Positions 16,655 through 25,478 of a stretch of DNA of 64,000 nt are shown here, one piece after another; within the stretch, counting starts at the first letter, position 1; the number at the start of each line of letters is the position of its first letter. A model generated the notes under the pieces. That model did no database searches, was not told the DNA's origin, and was given only the letters and a program-made list of their open reading frames with translations. Where the stretch lies: positions 67,675 through 131,674 of the forward strand of contig CAZPQI010000001.1 of the NCBI GenBank assembly GCA_964589005.1, in the 5' to 3' direction. Position numbers and translations under genes: made by a program. Source of the stretch: an uncultured Candidatus Saccharibacteria bacterium (lineage in GTDB: Bacteria > Patescibacteriota > Minisyncoccia > Phycocordibacterales > UBA2100).

Positions 16655-16774
16655 TACTTTCTATTATATCACGTTGAAAAAACACTTTTCTCGTGTAGAA
16701 TACGGCTCAGTTCTTTCCAAAGTTATATAGATTTTTTCGCTCCGCGGTAGCTCAGTGGTAGAGCAATCGACTGT

Positions 16775-17026
16775 CGAAGGCAGCCTTTGGTAGTAATATC
16801 AAAGTGAAGAACGAGGTGAATTGACTGGAAACCCTAACGTAAAGGCGAGGGCAATCAGCAGCCAAGCTTAATTGAAGGTTCAGAGACTATTCCGAAAGGA
16901 AGTACTATCCATTGTAATTATTTTGCAACTGGACGGGAAGCGCCTCGCATCCTAATCCGATCACGTCAGTGATTTAGGATGGATGATGATATAGTCCACC
17001 CCTTTTGGAAACAATTGGAAAAGGTG
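16775..17026 (+). mobile_element. putative group I intron (approx 252 nt) in the tRNA-Asn anticodon loop
   Basis: The 5' exon ends in U and the intron ends in G. An internal guide GCAG can pair with exon CUGU to form P1. GGAAACCCUAACG, CCAAGCUU and AGAGACUA match elements I recall from small bacterial tRNA group I introns of the Azoarcus tRNA-Ile / cyanobacterial tRNA-Leu type. A GACGGG...AUAGUCC P7-like pairing is present. The size fits that class. Confidence 0.6.
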
Positions 17027-17046
17027 TAATCGATTGGCCATAGGTT

Positions 17047-17064
17047 CGAATCCTATCCGCGGAG
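17047..17064 (+). repeat. direct repeat copy A (tRNA 3' end gaatcctatccgcggagc)
   Basis: An identical 18-mer recurs at 17445-17462. The pair flank the HNH ORF. Confidence 0.75.
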
Positions 17065-17102
17065 CGAAGTAATCTATACTTAAAGAGTGGTAGACTTAAT
17101 AG

Positions 17103-17435
17103 ATGTCTACCACTAAGAAACGAAAAGAAAAACGTACGTACGCCGATCGTCGTGAGTACATGATAAAGGCAGTCGCTAAACGACGCAGAAAGTTACGAAC
17201 TATGGCTTTAGAGCATGGAGGTGGTAAGTGTACGATTTGTGGGTATAAGAAATGCACTAGAGCGCTCACTTTTCATCACCTGGATCCATCTAAGAAAAAG
17301 TTCGGATTATCTGCCAGAGGGATAACTCGCTCATGGGAAAAAACTAAAGCAGAGTTAGAAAAATGTGTTTTGCTATGTATGAACTGCCACATGGAAATAC
17401 ATGATGGAGTTACTAAAGTTCCAAAGAAAAGGTAA
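17103..17435 (+). CDS. HNH endonuclease
   Basis: 110 aa with CxxC...HHLDP...N...CxxCH, a His-Me finger. Lies immediately 3' of the intron-containing tRNA, bracketed by duplicated tRNA 3'-end sequence. Confidence 0.8.
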   Translation: MSTTKKRKEKRTYADRREYMIKAVAKRRRKLRTMALEHGGGKCTICGYKKCTRALTFHHLDPSKKKFGLSARGITRSWEKTKAELEKCVLLCMNCHMEIHDGVTKVPKKR

Positions 17436-17444
17436 TTTTACGTT

Positions 17445-17462
17445 GAATCCTATCCGCGGAGC
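17445..17462 (+). repeat. direct repeat copy B (partial tRNA 3' end)
   Basis: gaatcctatccgcggagc preceded by gtt. One base of the tRNA T-loop (c) is missing. Looks like an att-site-style duplication. Confidence 0.75.
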
Positions 17463-17489: not shown

Positions 17490-17517
17490 CCATATTTAAT
17501 TACGTAATTAAATATGG
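17490..17517. promoter_or_regulatory. 28-bp perfect palindrome ccatatttaattacgtaattaaatatgg, with a second aattacgtaatt immediately after
   Basis: Lies about 35 bp upstream of the AbrB-like ORF. The TTACGTAA core is present twice. Operator candidate. Confidence 0.5.
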
Positions 17518-17551
17518 AATAAATTACGTAATTCTGCTAAAATCAAAAATA

Positions 17552-17728
17552 ATGGGACGACGCAAACTAAGTGACAAAAACATACGAAAACTAAGTAAAA
17601 TTGGTGGCAAAAGCATCGGTGTCACGATTCCTATTGAAATGGTGCGTAAATTAGGATGGAGAAGTAAGCAAAAGGTTGTTGTAGAAGAAAGAGGCAAGAC
17701 CATTGTCATCAAAGATTGGAAAAAATAA
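17552..17728 (+). CDS. AbrB/MazE/SpoVT-like small DNA-binding protein (58 aa; below ORF-track cutoff)
   Basis: MGRRKLSDKNIRKLSKIGGKSIGVTIPIEMVRKLGWRSKQKVVVEERGKTIVIKDWKK. The pattern (K.G.s..vtIP.e....lg...g..v.v...g..ivI) matches the swapped-hairpin AbrB/MazE fold. Confidence 0.45.
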   Translation: MGRRKLSDKNIRKLSKIGGKSIGVTIPIEMVRKLGWRSKQKVVVEERGKTIVIKDWKK

Positions 17729-17777: not shown

Positions 17778-18173
17778 CTATAAAATTTCTTTGTATTCTA
17801 TATAGTTAGTTTGAATCATTTTCTTCCACCAGACAGTCTCGTTATTACCTCTAATGTCATTCTTACAATAAACTAACAATATTTTAACTTCTTTTTTTGT
17901 TTTGTATTGAGCAACAATACATCTATTCCCAGAGGCTTTTGCGGATTCACTTGGTAAAATTTTAAATTCGCACTTATAGATGACAATGTCACTATCCAAA
18001 TCAGAAATAGAACTAGTTACACTCCGATCAATCATTAAATCAAACTTTCTAAGCATCAGAATAAAAGCTGACCACGGAGTGTTAAAAGAACTTTTATATT
18101 TTTTGCGCAAACTCTTTAAGTATAATTTTTCAGCAACACTTTCTGTAGAGACATCGTAATAATTAGTAGACAT
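17778..18173 (-). CDS. hypothetical 131-aa protein, candidate toxin partner of the Panacea-domain protein
   Basis: Overlaps the upstream HTH-Panacea gene by 11 nt, so translational coupling is likely. A weak RelE/ParE-like C-terminal pattern (NRCIVAQYKTKKEVKILLVYCKND). No confident family assignment. Confidence 0.4.
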   Translation of the reverse strand: MSTNYYDVSTESVAEKLYLKSLRKKYKSSFNTPWSAFILMLRKFDLMIDRSVTSSISDLDSDIVIYKCEFKILPSESAKASGNRCIVAQYKTKKEVKILLVYCKNDIRGNNETVWWKKMIQTNYIEYKEIL

Positions 18174-18858
18174 GCTCTGGGTCTTCTTGGGTTATAAGTT
18201 CGTACGGAATAATTGACCCTTTATCGGCAAAAATATATGGTATCTGCTCATGAGTAAACCTTACAATATCCTGCGTATTTGATTTTTTCCAATTATCCCA
18301 GACGTCGTGCATAAGTTTCTCCTCTGCTTTAGAAATAGAGTTTAAAGAATTTTTTTCTGAACCTCGAGTTTCAGAAAAAGAATATGTATCTTTTCCTTCG
18401 TCACTTTTGTGACTTACCACGATACTTCCGTCATCTTCTAATTCTTGAATTGCACGAAAATACGCATCCGGAACTGGGCCGAATTCAATTTTACGATATG
18501 GCATTCCACTTATGCTCTCTTGATGCTTGTAGTACCAAGCGAAGTCAGCAAGATACAAAAGTTTAGCTAGTTTAGTTTTCTTCAATACCTGCCCACTTTT
18601 TTTTGCATCGCGTAAATACGATAGAATCATCTGCTTATACTTTTCATAGTTAGGTGCTTGATTAGATAGAAGCTCTTGAATAGAGATACCAAACATGTCA
18701 GATAGCTTTTGTGCCTCCAGTAAACTAAGTTCTTTTACACCTTTTTCTAAAGAAACGTAAGATGGTCTAGAGATGCCAATCCTCTCAGCAACTTCACCTT
18801 GCGAAAACTTACGGTCTAAACGAAGACTCTTTATAAATTTAAAATAAGTATTACTCAT
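18163..18858 (-). CDS. XRE-HTH + Panacea (DUF4065/SocA-like) domain protein, putative PanA antitoxin/regulator
   Basis: N-terminal HTH (SQGEVAERIGISRPSYVSLEKG). The C-terminal region carries KLAKLLYLADF...GMPY...FGPVPDAY, the conserved core of DUF4065. Confidence 0.65.
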   Translation of the reverse strand: MSNTYFKFIKSLRLDRKFSQGEVAERIGISRPSYVSLEKGVKELSLLEAQKLSDMFGISIQELLSNQAPNYEKYKQMILSYLRDAKKSGQVLKKTKLAKLLYLADFAWYYKHQESISGMPYRKIEFGPVPDAYFRAIQELEDDGSIVVSHKSDEGKDTYSFSETRGSEKNSLNSISKAEEKLMHDVWDNWKKSNTQDIVRFTHEQIPYIFADKGSIIPYELITQEDPEHVY

Positions 18859-19002
18859 AGAAACAGTATACTACATACAAATTATGCTACGTCAACATCT
18901 TATCCACAGGATGTCACCTTTTTGACATCCTAAACGTTACTTGGTAAAATACAAACCACTTCGAGTGCAACGGAGGATTATTAGTTAAGTTTCTCAAAAT
19001 AT

Positions 19003-19146
19003 ATGGGACACAAGAAAGTAACAAGCAAGAGTATGTCTACCAAGGCAAGCAAGGCTTTGCGTAGCGGAAGCACAGGAAAAACTACGAAGTCACTTGCTGG
19101 CTCTACTCTATCGCAAAGCAAGGGGAAACACAGGAAAGGTAAATAG
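19003..19146 (+). CDS. possible 47-aa Lys/Ser/Thr-rich basic peptide (low confidence)
   Basis: MGHKKVTSKSMSTKASKALRSGSTGKTTKSLAGSTLSQSKGKHRKGK, followed by a hairpin (aaaaccga..tcggtttt) plus a T-rich tail. No clear RBS. Confidence 0.2.
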   Translation: MGHKKVTSKSMSTKASKALRSGSTGKTTKSLAGSTLSQSKGKHRKGK

Positions 19147-19289
19147 TAGAAAACCGACCTAAAGGATCGGTTTTCTACAAAAGTTTTATTTCAAGGTCGT
19201 GCGGAAGGGTGACTTTGTTTTTATATACTAGCAATGAATTAGATGTTTAACTAAGAAAATCGTAGGACAAATGTTAATTTGTTTTAAAA

Positions 19290-20453
19290 TTACCGATTTC
19301 CTTTTGCGCGATTGTGTGTTTTACACAACATCTGGCAATTTTTTAGTGAAGTTGCACCACCCTTGCTCCATGCGGCTACGTGATCAGCGTCCATATCACT
19401 CAAGCTCCATACCTTATCCTTGTTAACATCGTGTCCAATAGCACAATGCTGGCAATTTGATTTCCCTTTGGTTTTGGCTGTCTTTGTTTGCGAGGCATAG
19501 ACAGATTTTTTTGTGGCTTCATCAAAAACTCGAACATCAAGAAGTTTTGTATCTTTTTCACCACCTAAAATATATTCAAATACTCCCCTATGATTTCTAA
19601 CATAAGGGTCTGCATATAATTTGTGAACTGTATCAGATAATTTTTTTGGGTTATATCCTTTCTTATGATGTTCTTCATAGAGCCTTCCCCACTCCAAACC
19701 TTTCATTTCACTTTCTATATCGATAAAAGTTTTAGAAACCCAATCAATTACACTACTAAAGTACGTTTCTAATTCACTGATATTAGCATCTTGTCTATGT
19801 TTACTCATATAATCTCCAACTTTTCCACGACTTACCCAATCAAGTGCTTTTGCCAAAAAATCTTGTCTATTAACACTACCCTTGATGTACGCACCCCATT
19901 TCAGAACATTAGAATTTCGTGAATTACTAAACTCTTCTTTTGCAAGTGTTACAAATGGTCCAGAATATATCGCATTGAGAAGTTCTTGTTCGTTTAATGG
20001 CACTCCTGCAATATTAATTGTCTTAAACCACTCTTTTATTTCACTTTCCTTTCCCATGCATTCATAAATTGTTAATTTAGTTTGCATTATTTCTTCTTGT
20101 TTGTCTTTTGAAATACCACTGAAATATTGCTCCATGCCGTTTTCATCTTTAACGGCAAATTTATTAGTTACATATCGTCCAAAGCTAGTGATTCTTTGTT
20201 GTCCATCCAAGACCTCCAAATTATCTTTTCCAACTTTATTGAAATAAATCAAACCTATTGGATAACCTTTCAGAATTGACTCAATTACAGCCACATCTTT
20301 TTTCCCATCAGCATAAATATAATTCCTTTGATACTCTGGCTGAATTTTTAATTTCCCATTTATCCCGAAAAGTCCTTTTCCCTCTAACTCATTATAAACA
20401 AATCCTTCGCAAATCTCTTTTACAGTGTATGTTGTTTTTAGTATTGTTTTCAT
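19290..20453 (-). CDS. DUF262 (ParB-like NTPase, DGQQR motif) + C-terminal HNH nuclease; restriction/defence endonuclease candidate
   Basis: [12 protein letters not shown] is the DUF262 signature. The C-terminus carries CQHC...[12 protein letters not shown]...[15 protein letters not shown], an HNH motif. Its start lies 1 nt after the stop of the upstream methyltransferase. Confidence 0.8.
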
Positions 20454-20454
20454 T

Positions 20455-21618
20455 TTATTTTTTGTGTTTGATTATAATTCTTGAGTATGGAACAACAGCT
20501 TTATCACCAACCATAATATAAAATCTCCATACAGAAGAATGACCTGGAAGAGACTTGTCTATTTCTTTTGGTATAGGAGTTATTCCCAATTTTTTTCCTA
20601 ATGCCCCAATTCCAATTCCAATTATTTCAAATTGTTCTGGGCAATATTTATCCATAAATGATACTGGCACACCCATTTCTCCCTTATAATCATTTGGAAT
20701 CGCTCTTACCATTGGGATATCAATCGCGTCATAATTAGCATATTTTGGATAATAATCTACTTCATACTTCTTTTTTAAATTATTTAATAGAGTAGTATTA
20801 AATTTAAGATTGTCTTTTTCAGACATTAACTGCAGGGGATGGTGCCTAACTCCATGGTCAATATTTGTATACCACCTTATACCATTTACTCTCCAATAAA
20901 ATTTACCATCTTTTATATATGCATTCTTTTCGTCAGACATTTTTTGTGAATCATATAGTTCTTTTGGAGCAATAAAATATGCTGCTCCCCCATTAAAGTA
21001 TGTAGCACCAAGCCACATAATATTATCTTTAATTAAAGGAAAGATTTCTTTATTCGCAATTGTGTTCAAATTCCCTATAATTACAAATTTTTTATTTGCT
21101 TCCAGTATCCAAGCTAAAAACTCTCTAAATAAACTAAATGGAGGATTTGTAATAATTATATCTGCTTCATCTCTTATCTTTTTTACTTCGCTGCTTCTGA
21201 AGTCTCCATCCCCTTTCATGTATTTCCAGTCTAAATCATCTATATCTATCTTATTATCTCCTGTTTTATCTTTTGTAAGAGTAAAAATCTTCCCTTTTAT
21301 TCTGGTTTTCTTTTTGTCAAACCTTGAACTTTTTTCTTCAAAAAGTGTTGTTTCGTATCCCTCCTTATATTTTTTACTTTCTACAGCATAACTTGTAGAA
21401 ACCAATTTTTTTAATTTAAATTTCTCAAAATTCTGTGCAAAGTATTTAGTGAAGTCGCTCCATTCAGGGTCATCGCAAGGTAAGAGAATAACTTTATCTT
21501 TAAAGACATTGGGGTTATATTCAAGATAAGCATTGATCTCTTTTTCAATGTCTTTATATTGTGTATAAAACTCATCGTTTTTTGCATTCTTCGCATCTGC
21601 CAAATTACTTTGTGCCAT
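20455..21618 (-). CDS. DNA amino-methyltransferase (N6-adenine or N4-cytosine), NPPF motif IV
   Basis: [11 protein letters not shown] is the catalytic motif IV of amino-MTases. The N-terminal DEFYT region is present. GC is very low, about 28-30% in sampled stretches. Confidence 0.8.
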
Positions 21619-22162: not shown

Positions 22163-22408
22163 GTGAGAAACAACATGACAATACGAGCGCACGATGAAAA
22201 CATCTTCGCCGAAGGAGGTGGACATTATGTGAGAACTATACCAACACGTGGCCCGAGAGCTCCCTACATTGGATTTATAAAAACAACGCTTGGCGAGGCA
22301 GAGGTTGAGTACGACAACAAGGTGGTTTTTGAAGTGTTGGTGAGTGGCGATGAAATTACCGAGGAAGAGTACAATGATGCTGAAGTAACAGTCTTTAATG
22401 ATATATGA
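22163..22408 (+). CDS. hypothetical 81-aa protein, coupled to the downstream DUF2779 gene
   Basis: ATGA stop/start overlap with the next ORF. Acidic C-terminus. Confidence 0.3.
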   Translation: MRNNMTIRAHDENIFAEGGGHYVRTIPTRGPRAPYIGFIKTTLGEAEVEYDNKVVFEVLVSGDEITEEEYNDAEVTVFNDI

Positions 22409-23889
22409 CCAAAATAAACCTTACAAAAACGGATTTTAAGGAGTACCTACTCTGTAATAAGTGCTTGTGGTTGAAGAAGAAAAAACCAGATGAGTATATA
22501 GATGGGGAATTTTCGCAATTCCTTAAAAAACTGATAAAAGATGGTTACGAAGTTGAAAGGTACGCTCAGGGGTTGTTTCCTGGTGGGGTTTTTGTTTCCG
22601 GGGATAAAGAAACACTAATTAAAAAAACAAAGGAGCTACTAAAGGGCACAAAACCAATTTTCCAAGCGACATTTGAAACTATTGAGGGTCTTTTTGCAAA
22701 AATTGATATTCTCAATTTTAATGAGGAAACTAAAAAGTGGGATTTGTATGAAGTTAAAGCGAGCTCGGACATAAAAACTGATATCCAACACAATCACGTA
22801 AAAGACCTTATATTCCAAACTATTTTGCTAGAAAACGCGGGAGTAGACTTGGGTGAGAGTTACATAATTCACCTCAACAAAGAATACAGGCGTAATGGTG
22901 AAGTAGATATTCATGAGCTTCTTACTACTGAAAACCTAAAAGAGGAAGTGGGCGAGCAAAAAGAAGAAGTGCGAGACGAAATGAACCAAGCGTTAAAACT
23001 ATTGGCAAAAGACGAAATTGCGCTTGATAGTTGCGACTGTTTATATAAAAGCAGTGGTCAACACTGCGACTGTTTTGCAAAGTTTAATCCGCAAGTGCCT
23101 GAATACTCAGTGCACAATATTTTAATGGGTAAGAAGCTTAAAGCTTTGGTGGATGACGGAATTGTAGACATTACAAAAATCCCAGAAAACTTTGAACTTA
23201 CTGATATTCAACAGCAAAAAGTAGATTTACAAAAAGACGAACAGCCGATTATTAATCGCGAAGCAGTGGACGAAGCACTCTCGGGGCTGGTGTATCCAAT
23301 ATACTTTTTCGACTACGAAACGTACCCCTCGCCCATTCCTCCGCTTGATGCGTACAAACCAAACCAACACTTTGTATTTCAGGTTTCTATTCATGCCTTG
23401 CATGAAGACGGAGAACTAGAGCACTTTGAATTTTTAGCAGAAGAAATGGAAGGCTCGACAGAAGCGTTGGTGAATATGATGCGCGATAGTATTGGTGACA
23501 CTGGCAGTATTGTGGTTTGGAACGATGTGTTTGAGAAAGGTAGAAATATAGAACTCGCGGAGCTACACCCAGAAGAAAAGGACTTCCTGCTTGGGTTGAA
23601 CGAAAGAACGTTTGATTTAATGAAAGTATTTAAACGCGACTATACTCGCCCAGATTTTTACGGAAGCGCCTCTATTAAAGCTGTATTACCCGCTATGGTG
23701 CCCGAACTCTCGTACAAAGATTTGGAAGTACAGAATGGAACAATGGCAATGAGTGAGTGGAAAAAGATTATCGATGGTGAACTGGGCCTAAAGAGCGCAC
23801 AAAAGGCTCGTAAAGACTTACTCGACTATTGCGGGTTAGATACGTTCGCAATGGTAGAGATATATAAGAAGATTAAGGAAGAGTCGTAA
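22405..23889 (+). CDS. DUF2779-like protein: N-terminal Cys-containing PD-(D/E)xK-type nuclease region + C-terminal DnaQ-like 3'-5' exonuclease region
   Basis: N-terminal LLCNKCLWL with additional Cys (CDCLYKSSGQHCDC). C-terminal YFFDYETY resembles Exo I (DxE) and LDYCGLDTFAMVEIYKK resembles Exo III (YxxxD). Confidence 0.55.
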   Translation: MTKINLTKTDFKEYLLCNKCLWLKKKKPDEYIDGEFSQFLKKLIKDGYEVERYAQGLFPGGVFVSGDKETLIKKTKELLKGTKPIFQATFETIEGLFAKIDILNFNEETKKWDLYEVKASSDIKTDIQHNHVKDLIFQTILLENAGVDLGESYIIHLNKEYRRNGEVDIHELLTTENLKEEVGEQKEEVRDEMNQALKLLAKDEIALDSCDCLYKSSGQHCDCFAKFNPQVPEYSVHNILMGKKLKALVDDGIVDITKIPENFELTDIQQQKVDLQKDEQPIINREAVDEALSGLVYPIYFFDYETYPSPIPPLDAYKPNQHFVFQVSIHALHEDGELEHFEFLAEEMEGSTEALVNMMRDSIGDTGSIVVWNDVFEKGRNIELAELHPEEKDFLLGLNERTFDLMKVFKRDYTRPDFYGSASIKAVLPAMVPELSYKDLEVQNGTMAMSEWKKIIDGELGLKSAQKARKDLLDYCGLDTFAMVEIYKKIKEES

Positions 23890-24333: not shown

Positions 24334-24383
24334 AATGAAGAATCTTAGACTCAAAGTGCTATACTAAACGAACAATTGAATAA

Positions 24384-24526
24384 ATTATCAAGAAAGATGT
24401 GAAGGGACTAGCCTTATGACCATCTTAGCAACCTGTCTCTTCGTCCAGATAAGGTGCTCCATCTAGCCTGTATAGGAAAGATAACAATGCATCAGCATCT
24501 TACCCTTCACAGGAAAGATGTTTTTT
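24384..24526 (+). promoter_or_regulatory. SAM-I (S-box) riboswitch with terminator in the metK leader
   Basis: UUAUCAAGAAAGAUGUGAAGGGACUAGCC...GCAACC...AGAUAAGGUGCUCC...AUCUAGCC...GGAAAGAUAA matches the SAM-I consensus blocks (YUCUUAUCAAGAG..GGAGGGACUGGCC...GCAACC...AAGGUGCUAA..CCAGC..GAUAAGA). It is followed by the hairpin catctt...aagatg plus TTTTTT just before the metK start. Confidence 0.8.
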
Positions 24527-24539
24527 AGTGTTAAAAGAT

Positions 24540-25478
24540 ATGAAGAAAACAGCAGAATTCGTAAGTCCAAAGCATCCAGATAAAATATGCGACTATATAG
24601 CGGATATTATATTAGATGCTTACTTGGGTGATGATAAAGATAGCAGAGTGGCCATCGAGGTTATGGGTGGCCACAATCTTGTTACCGTAAACGGAGAAGT
24701 AACGAGCAAGACAACCATAGATATTGAGGGGCTTATAAAAAACATAGTAGGCTCAGATTACAAAGTGATATCTAATGTCGTAGCACAAAGTAGCGAAATA
24801 GCGCGCGGTGTAGACACTGGAGGTGCAGGTGACCAAGGAATAATGAAGGGTTACGCAACAAGCGAGACAGAAAGCCTAATGCCATTAGAGTACGAACTTG
24901 CTCGAAACTTATGTATGAAAATTTTTGAGGTTTATCCTTATGACGGCAAGACTCAAATTACAATCGATGGAGAAAAAGTTACGTCGGTAATTGCTAGTTT
25001 TCAAAATTCTAAAAGTGATGAGCTGTTATCATTAGTAAAAAGTATTATTCAGTCCGAAGAGTACTTCATAAACCAATCAGGAGAGTGGTCGCAAGGTGGA
25101 TTTGATGCAGATACTGGGCTCTCGGGACGAAAACTTATTGTAGATAATTATGGCCCTGAAGTGACCATAGGAGGTGGCTCCTTTTCTGGAAAAGATTACA
25201 CAAAAGTGGACCGCTCGGGAGCATATATGGCTCGAAAAATATCTGTTGACTACCTAAAGAAGCGCTCAGCCAAGGAAGTACATACGAAGTTAGCATATGC
25301 GATAGGAAAACCTGAACCAGTTATGGCAACTGCTATTATAGACGGAAAAGAAATTCCAATAGAGGGGTACAATTTAACACCTGCTGGGATAAGGAAATTA
25401 CTGAAACTAGATAAGCTAAAGTTGTCGACAACCTCTAACTGGGGCCATTTTGGTAGAGGTTTTGAATGGGACGTTTAG
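24540..25478 (+). CDS. metK: S-adenosylmethionine synthetase (compact)
   Basis: Motifs KHPDKICDYIAD, GAGDQG and GGGSFSGKD. The first ATG lies 4 codons inside the tracked ORF, which is GTG-initiated. Confidence 0.93.
   Translation: MKKTAEFVSPKHPDKICDYIADIILDAYLGDDKDSRVAIEVMGGHNLVTVNGEVTSKTTIDIEGLIKNIVGSDYKVISNVVAQSSEIARGVDTGGAGDQGIMKGYATSETESLMPLEYELARNLCMKIFEVYPYDGKTQITIDGEKVTSVIASFQNSKSDELLSLVKSIIQSEEYFINQSGEWSQGGFDADTGLSGRKLIVDNYGPEVTIGGGSFSGKDYTKVDRSGAYMARKISVDYLKKRSAKEVHTKLAYAIGKPEPVMATAIIDGKEIPIEGYNLTPAGIRKLLKLDKLKLSTTSNWGHFGRGFEWDV

Follow-up and report, generated by a model that had tools for sequence, protein, structure and literature searches.

Does a pair of overlapping genes in an uncultured Candidatus Saccharibacteria bacterium encode a toxin-antitoxin system and, if so, what would its toxin do? 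The genes, here named panA and panT, lie at positions 17778 to 18858 of a 64,000-nucleotide (nt) stretch of contig CAZPQI010000001.1 (assembly GCA_964589005.1, positions 67,675 to 131,674), which we call the window and whose numbering is used throughout. An initial annotation had described the upstream product as a DUF4065 (Panacea) protein with an XRE-type helix-turn-helix (HTH) and its partner as a 131-amino-acid (aa) protein of unknown family, and had proposed a translationally coupled PanA-PanT pair, possibly with a new toxin domain. Our results indicate that panAT is probably a type II PanA-PanT toxin-antitoxin (or defence) module, with a toxin that is a probable ribosome-dependent mRNA-cleaving ribonuclease (mRNase). 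Both open reading frames (ORFs) and their overlap were found as first described, on the minus strand:

18163..18858, minus strand: panA, encoding a 231-aa putative antitoxin and probable autorepressor, with an XRE HTH, a Panacea domain and a conserved C-terminal tail, IIPYELITQEDPEHVY.
18670..18834, minus strand: HTH_3 (XRE-type) DNA-binding domain, PanA residues 9-63 (Pfam, E 9.8e-13, 48.4 bits, cut-off 23).
18238..18570, minus strand: Panacea (DUF4065/SocA-like) domain, PanA residues 97-207 (Pfam SocA_Panacea, PF13274, E 3.5e-15, 57.3 bits, gathering cut-off 25.7), with the GPV signature at 18472-18480.
17778..18173, minus strand: panT, encoding a 131-aa protein predicted to be a RelE/ParE-superfamily toxin, HigB2/RelE-like and probably an mRNA endonuclease that depends on the ribosome.
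18163..18173, minus strand: 11-nt overlap ATGTCTACTAA of the panA stop and panT start, pointing to translational coupling.

Hidden Markov model (HMM) searches with PF13274 and HTH_3 confirmed that PanA combines a Panacea core with an XRE HTH, as the initial annotation had read it. The match is well above threshold and spans profile positions 1-111 of 113. The two motifs quoted from the protein, KLAKLLYLADF and GPVPDAY, begin at residues 96 and 127. The GPV motif is the Panacea signature and is critical for neutralisation (Kurata et al. 2022, PMC8832971), and G127-P128-V129 showed no variation across 35 aligned PanA homologues (mean column identity 61%). Conservation was also strong outside the Pfam Panacea envelope, at residues ~70-80 (YEKYKQMIL) and in the tail at 208-231 (IIPYELITQEDPExVY). 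HTH N-termini occur in 343 PanAs (PMC8832971). A PanA profile searched against PDB sequences matched only HTH domains (restriction-modification (R-M) controller proteins, HipB, PezA, SinR and CI-type) and found no solved Panacea relative, and the structure model built from the single PanA sequence was unusable (predicted local distance difference test (pLDDT) 37.6). PanA carries no PAD1, zinc-binding (ZBD) or Phd-C domain. Lacking a zinc-binding domain for neutralisation, PanA would have to neutralise through Panacea itself or through the conserved segments on either side of it (residues ~70-95 and 208-231).

The 131-aa partner matched nothing in Pfam, NCBIfam, PHROGs or PADLOC, in agreement with its first description as a protein of no known family. 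It is nonetheless widespread. A search with the window PanT as query returned 32 homologues of ~130 aa. With a 28-sequence profile, 1.84 billion representatives yielded 217 clusters at 50% identity, of which 157 scored below E 1e-10; a profile made from Saccharibacteria members gave 2,094 clusters at 90% identity. Met1 is invariant in the family alignments, which supports the start codon. The relatives are called 'hypothetical' in every source that names them and none has a precomputed Pfam domain. In a collection of species-representative genomes, 287 genomes encode PanT relatives; the best 80 of these 287 loci mostly carry Patescibacteria (candidate phyla radiation, CPR) labels, including Saccharibacteria, Paceibacterota/Parcubacteria and others, with a few metagenome-assembled genomes (MAGs) labelled otherwise. 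A divergent branch (34-37% identity) was found in a Lachnospiraceae MAG and on one IMG/VR viral contig. No match to PanT was found by tblastn against annotated plasmid and phage collections. Judged from these sequence comparisons, the 131-aa ORF is a real conserved gene.

We then assessed how strictly panT is paired with panA. To the 80 genome loci we added the window, the viral locus and four metagenome loci, 86 in all, and scanned the ORFs surrounding every toxin gene with iterated profiles built from the Panacea and HTH segments of the window PanA. In 85 of the 86, the ORF immediately upstream of panT on the same strand was of the HTH-Panacea type, and the lone exception was truncated by the end of its contig. 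The 131-aa ORF is thus conserved beside Panacea homologues, and the proposed coupled PanA-PanT pair is supported. On independent contigs, precomputed Pfam annotation agrees on an HTH-Panacea gene beside panT. In the window, panA ends ...CAT GTC TAC TAA and panT starts ATG TCT ACT. Of the 73 pairs with an unambiguous toxin start, 35 overlap by 11 nt, 10 overlap by 14 nt and 23 are separated by a small gap (+2 to +13 nt). Pairwise distances between PanAs and between PanTs were correlated across 80 pairs (r 0.80, Mantel p 0.001), indicating that the two genes are inherited as a unit. There is no third conserved gene: even the most frequent neighbour family was present in only 7 of 85 loci, and the flanks otherwise vary. 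The two-gene neighbourhood of PanAT systems was thus found across genomes with different flanks.

To what fold does PanT belong? An AlphaFold2 model made with the 28-sequence alignment had a mean pLDDT of 87.6 and a predicted template modelling score (pTM) of 0.82. It contains a strand at 7-10, helices at 12-29, 31-42 and 44-48, strands at 53-55, 63-69, 83-90 and 95-103, and a helix at 112-123. This beta-alpha-alpha-beta-beta-beta-alpha order is that of RelE and HigB2. The model has the N-terminal strand, two helices and antiparallel sheet of the RelE/ParE (BECR) fold, in which the C-terminal helix is optional. Foldseek matched it to aRelE (E 6e-4) and HigB2 (E 1e-3), and the top 40 matches were mostly RelE, HigB, YoeB and YafQ. 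At the sequence level, the only PDB matches of the PanT family profile below E 0.1 were Vibrio cholerae HigB-2 (VcHigB2) chains, for which the E-value improved from 1.1 with the 28-sequence profile to 0.009 with 80 diverse sequences. The aligned stretch reads SGNRCIV...KILLVYxKND in the PanT family and GGSRIIYY...FYLLTIYGKNE in HigB2. Model and sequence together indicate that PanT is a divergent RelE/HigB2-like protein lying below the threshold of every curated model. At the level of the fold, predicted to be that of the RelE/ParE superfamily, the suggestion of a new toxin domain is not supported.

The HMM alignment also places three of the four proven catalytic residues of HigB2, R64, Y82 and K84, opposite R84, Y102 and K104 of PanT. 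The HigB2 active site (R51, R64, Y82 and K84) was established by mutagenesis, with alanine at R64, Y82 and K84 lowering activity 350-, 1200- and 3000-fold (Hadzi et al. 2017, PMC5416850). The residues concerned in PanT are encoded as follows:

17922..17924, minus strand: codon of PanT Arg84, which aligns with catalytic Arg64 of VcHigB2.
17862..17870, minus strand: codons of PanT Tyr102-x-Lys104, which align with VcHigB2 Tyr82 and Lys84 (motif LLVYxKN versus LLTIYGKN).
17973..17975, minus strand: codon of PanT Lys67, on strand 63-69 before a basic loop; candidate equivalent of HigB2 Arg51 or RelE Lys52-Lys54.
17838..17840, minus strand: codon of PanT Glu112, a family-specific invariant at the start of the C-terminal helix.

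Across 80 diverse representatives, R84, Y102, K104 and K67 were each conserved in 79, E112 in all 80 and K24 in 75. Glu112 is followed by Thr113 (together 17835-17840), which is conserved in 73 of the 80; neither residue has a counterpart in the RelE/HigB2 active site.

Two features were found upstream of panA:

18868..18895, minus strand: sigma-70-like panAT promoter, -35 TTGACG (18895-18890), 16-nt spacer, -10 TAGTAT (18873-18868), 9/12 match.
18908..18931, no strand assigned: perfect inverted repeat AGGATGTCA-N6-TGACATCCT, a candidate PanA operator directly upstream of the -35 box.

The panA ATG stands 9 nt past the -10 in the window. With the start codon this close, panAT is probably transcribed into an mRNA with no leader or a very short one. 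The pattern recurs in other genomes. TGTC-N8-11-[GA]ACA was found upstream of panA in 50 of 81 non-identical loci versus 5% of control segments from the same loci, and TTGA[CT]-N4-7-[GT]ACA in 55 of the 81 versus 3.4%, a 10- to 16-fold enrichment. The consensus before panA across loci is ATGTCAAgtTTATtAACA-N7-TTGACTTcTTTACA-N9-TATATACT-N6-8-ATG. Given its HTH domain and the usual behaviour of type II antitoxins, PanA may bind these TGTCA/TGACA boxes. No intrinsic terminator having a stem rich in G+C was detected downstream of panT; the only feature there is an AT-rich inverted repeat, common to panT and the convergent mazE-like gene. A 47-aa Lys/Ser-rich ORF (19003-19146, plus strand; region 18922-19178) without a Pfam match diverges from panA. 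Its promoter is near consensus (TTGACA-17-TAAAAT with TG, 11/12), with a -35 that overlaps the right arm of the panA inverted repeat, and a terminator with a 14-bp stem follows it at 19146-19178. This ORF may be co-regulated with panAT.

The domain identities, predicted fold, conservation of active-site-like residues, strict pairing, co-divergence and promoter/operator pattern were all computed here, and with them the following mechanism can be proposed. Both genes would be co-transcribed from the sigma-70-type promoter as a probably almost leaderless transcript, with panT translation coupled through the stop/start overlap. The XRE HTH of PanA would bind the TGTCA/TGACA inverted repeat beside the -35 and so repress the operon, and PanA would also hold PanT inactive by direct binding through its Panacea domain and/or the conserved flanking segments. 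We infer that a trigger such as phage infection, transcription shut-off or proteolysis would lead to PanA being lost or switched, freeing a toxic PanT. Like RelE and HigB2, free PanT would enter the ribosomal A site and cleave mRNA with Arg84, Tyr102, Lys104 and probably Lys67. Translation and growth would then stop.

How does this module compare with known systems? PanAT systems were defined by Kurata et al. 2022, with toxins including MqsR-like, PemK, ParE and many unannotated clusters, and RelE/ParE-type and HigB-2-like PanTs are already listed there (PMC8832971). The window pair shares with them the antitoxin-first order and an HTH and Panacea antitoxin with the GPV motif. Their PanT group T14 (pT15) in Dataset S1 has 16 members, from RefSeq genomes, and its best HHpred match is HigB-2 at 99.7%. 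The T14 rows for Saccharibacteria (Ca. Saccharimonas aalborgensis and TM7 HOT_356) give an HTH PanA, a 'hypothetical protein' partner, antitoxin-toxin order and an overlap of -11 (PMC8832971). T14 and the window pair are thus alike in taxon, HTH PanA, gene order, overlap and HigB-2 as best match. They differ in scale: T14 has 16 members, whereas 287 species genomes and ~2,100 clusters (90% identity) were counted for the PanT family. T14 accessions (e.g. WP_015641600.1 and WP_129619247.1) were not among the matches listed for two PanT profile searches, all of them unnamed or 'hypothetical' MAG proteins, and a cluster look-up of 10 divergent PanT representatives returned one Saccharimonadales MAG name and no RefSeq accession. 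From these shared features, the PanT family is probably T14.

Set beside VcHigB2 (PF06296), PanT has the same fold, secondary-structure order, C-terminal helix and long beta2-beta3 loop, and the two share the motif GxR[CI]I...LL.[IV]Y.KN. PanT is however ~20 residues longer at the N-terminal helices, does not conserve R51 in register and has Glu112 and Thr113 as family-specific invariants. The operons differ as well, HigBA being toxin first and HigA2 having a disordered N-terminus and a C-terminal HTH, whereas panA comes first and PanA has an N-terminal HTH followed by Panacea. In HigB2 and RelE, the catalytic residues are basic and aromatic and lie on the face of the sheet (K52, K54, R61, R81 and Y87 in RelE). 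The putative PanT set (R84, Y102 and K104) appears closer to that of RelE and HigB2 (Arg/Lys/Tyr) than to those of YoeB (Glu/His) or YafQ (His). Classical RelBE, YefM-YoeB and DinJ-YafQ share with panAT an antitoxin-first bicistronic operon and probable operator autoregulation at the promoter, but the Panacea family is unrelated to RelB, YefM and DinJ. In MqsR-type PanAT the antitoxin is ZBD-HTH-Panacea (Ernits et al. 2023, PMC10440598), whereas PanA here lacks the zinc-binding domain.

panAT is not a new kind of system, and such PanTs have already been catalogued computationally. The novelty is narrower: a sequence family outside the curated libraries, found mostly in Patescibacteria-labelled genomes. 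What our analysis adds is the fold, the active-site mapping, the scale of the family, its frequency in genomes labelled as Patescibacteria, the promoter/operator and the defence-island context. In the literature library that was searched, no paper links Panacea or DUF4065 with Patescibacteria or Saccharibacteria. The ~2,100 hypothetical clusters gain a probable function, and a Pfam or NCBIfam model built from these alignments would improve annotation of Patescibacteria genomes. For uncultivated members of this group, the family is also a promising marker of defence islands and of mobile DNA. panAT further offers a compact test case, that of an HTH-Panacea antitoxin with no extra neutralisation domain facing a RelE-type RNase, a question left open by Ernits et al. 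2023 (PMC10440598).

Several observations weigh against a HigB2-like mRNase neutralised by PanA. The sequence similarity of PanT to HigB-2 is weak, at 19 bits over only ~40 residues. When 80 family members were scanned with Pfam, none reached a RelE-clan threshold; a single one of the 80 matched PF06296 (E 0.014), the other results were noise and the window PanT gave no match. The fourth catalytic residue of HigB2, R51, aligns with the variable Lys71 of PanT, which is Ala in the divergent branch. It is plausible that Lys67, on the same strand as Lys71, stands in for it. The chemistry or substrate may differ, given an invariant Glu112 with no counterpart in RelE or HigB2. T14 is marked 'notest' in Dataset S1 (PMC8832971). 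On the antitoxin side, HTH-Panacea alone failed to neutralise MqsR in a ZBD-HTH-Panacea antitoxin, and it has been proposed that Panacea neutralises directly when alone but may be a sensor where other domains neutralise (Ernits et al. 2023, PMC10440598).

A bolder reading, which we consider unlikely, would make the PanT clade a distinct group of the RelE superfamily, mostly in Patescibacteria, in which Glu112-Thr113 and Lys67 might mark another catalytic set or substrate (e.g. another RNA or ribosome-independent cleavage) and the HTH-Panacea partner might be a phage sensor in the defence islands of ultra-small episymbionts. In that case, a lineage with poorly known immunity would have panAT as a main defence of the abortive-infection type, and TGTCA boxes would control the conserved leaderless promoter of the module.

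Alternatively, PanA may not block PanT directly but hand it to a protease such as ClpXP, as in the type VI system SocAB. The Panacea family was founded on SocA, which delivers SocB to ClpXP as an adaptor, and the two modes need not be mutually exclusive (PMC8832971). Against this, PanAs were found to neutralise by direct binding; none of those assayed by Kurata et al. needed ClpXP or Lon, and stable toxin complexes were obtained with five (PMC8832971). The tight translational coupling and the co-divergence of the pair likewise fit a stoichiometric complex. We therefore think proteolytic hand-over improbable here, a judgement that touches the neutralisation step only.

The toxin could instead be of the ParE type, which has the same fold but poisons DNA gyrase and does not cleave mRNA. 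There is little room for this. All the better structural matches of PanT are mRNases, eight mRNase structures outrank those of ParE, and ParE is absent from the Foldseek top 40. HigB-2 is the only PDB sequence match below E 0.1, and Pfam ParE_toxin matched neither the window PanT nor the 80 family members. The near invariance of the Arg, Tyr and Lys that are catalytic in HigB2 would also not be expected of a gyrase poison. A ParE-type PanT is thus very improbable.

Nor do we find it credible, to a slightly greater degree still, that PanT is an inactive or re-purposed RelE-fold protein, such as a co-repressor or a ribosome binder without nuclease activity. Eight PanTs assayed by Kurata et al. 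were non-toxic in E. coli (PMC8832971), and no curated toxin model matches the family. By contrast, the active-site-like residues are conserved in 79-80 of the 80 diverse representatives, all but one of the 86 loci keep the antitoxin, and the module is located in defence islands.

We rejected the notion that the 231-aa protein serves the adjacent R-M operon as its controller (C) protein, with the 131-aa protein as an accessory non-toxic partner. The HTH region of the 231-aa protein does match PADLOC 'Control_protein' models (E 5.9e-8) and, among C proteins in the PDB, C.BclI and C.AhdI, and an R-M operon whose restriction endonuclease (REase) family is the commonest neighbour (7/85 loci) lies directly upstream of panA on the same strand. 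But the pair is kept in 78 of the 85 loci without that REase, PanA carries a Panacea domain whereas C proteins are HTH-only and ~80-100 aa, the R-M genes are set apart from panA by a strong terminator and by an ORF on the opposite strand, and the inverted repeat stands at panA's own promoter.

The genomic setting of the PanA-PanT module was also examined. panAT lies in a small low-GC defence island adjoining a tRNA gene, with a GC of 0.33-0.36 over 18-22 kb versus ~0.41 elsewhere. In order of position, an intron-split tRNA gene on the plus strand comes first, then an HNH gene, a lone MazE/AbrB-like gene and panAT; beyond panAT come a type II R-M pair and then a DUF2779 protein. Defence genes also make up most of the recurrent neighbours of panAT in other genomes. 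Among 85 loci, the window-type REase family was found in 7, a Schlafen-like helicase with an S24 peptidase in 6, MazG-like and EcoRI-like methylase genes in 5 each, type I and type IIG R-M components in 5, 4 and 4, a PD-(D/E)XK nuclease in 4 and RhuM in 3.

A divergent copy of panAT (toxin 34% identical; L085, 404-5493) is present on IMGVR_UViG_3300027891_000022, a 34-kb predicted viral contig. It lies between a large serine recombinase and an amidase/peptidoglycan-binding endolysin, indicating that the divergent branch is carried by a temperate phage.

Some neighbours of panAT in the window merit description in their own right. A group I intron (Rfam RF00028, 77.9 bits, E 4.5e-18; match 16725-17018) splits the anticodon loop of the tRNA gene (16738-17066, plus strand). 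Splicing in silico gave a clean 73-nt tRNA-Thr(UGU) or tRNA-Asn(GUU), depending on the junction chosen; ARAGORN detected no tRNA in the whole window. The 3' end of the tRNA is present as an exact 18-nt direct repeat, GAATCCTATCCGCGGAGC, at 17048-17065 and 17445-17462 (plus strand), against a chance expectation of 0.02 copies, and the two copies bracket an ORF for a 110-aa HNH endonuclease (17103-17435). This arrangement, found at the very border of the defence island, suggests that an insertion or att-like duplication took place at the 3' end of the tRNA.

The MazE/AbrB-like ORF (17552-17728, plus strand; 58 aa, PF04014, E 2.9e-7) converges on panT and has no adjoining toxin gene. It is preceded by two copies of the palindrome AATTACGTAATT (17498-17509 and 17522-17533), which are likely an operator. 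The same arrangement recurs on an independent metagenome contig (L086).

The R-M pair beyond panAT (19290-21618, minus strand) consists of an EcoRI-like adenine methylase (PF13651, E 8e-118) and then a GmrSD_N and HNH endonuclease (PADLOC REase_II, E 1.7e-82). The low-GC island is closed by the 494-aa DUF2779 protein (22405-23889, plus strand; E 2.6e-34), which has a faint Cas4-like match. A little further along, an S-adenosylmethionine (SAM) riboswitch (RF00162, 49.7 bits, 24382-24487, plus strand) precedes a gene at 24528-25478.

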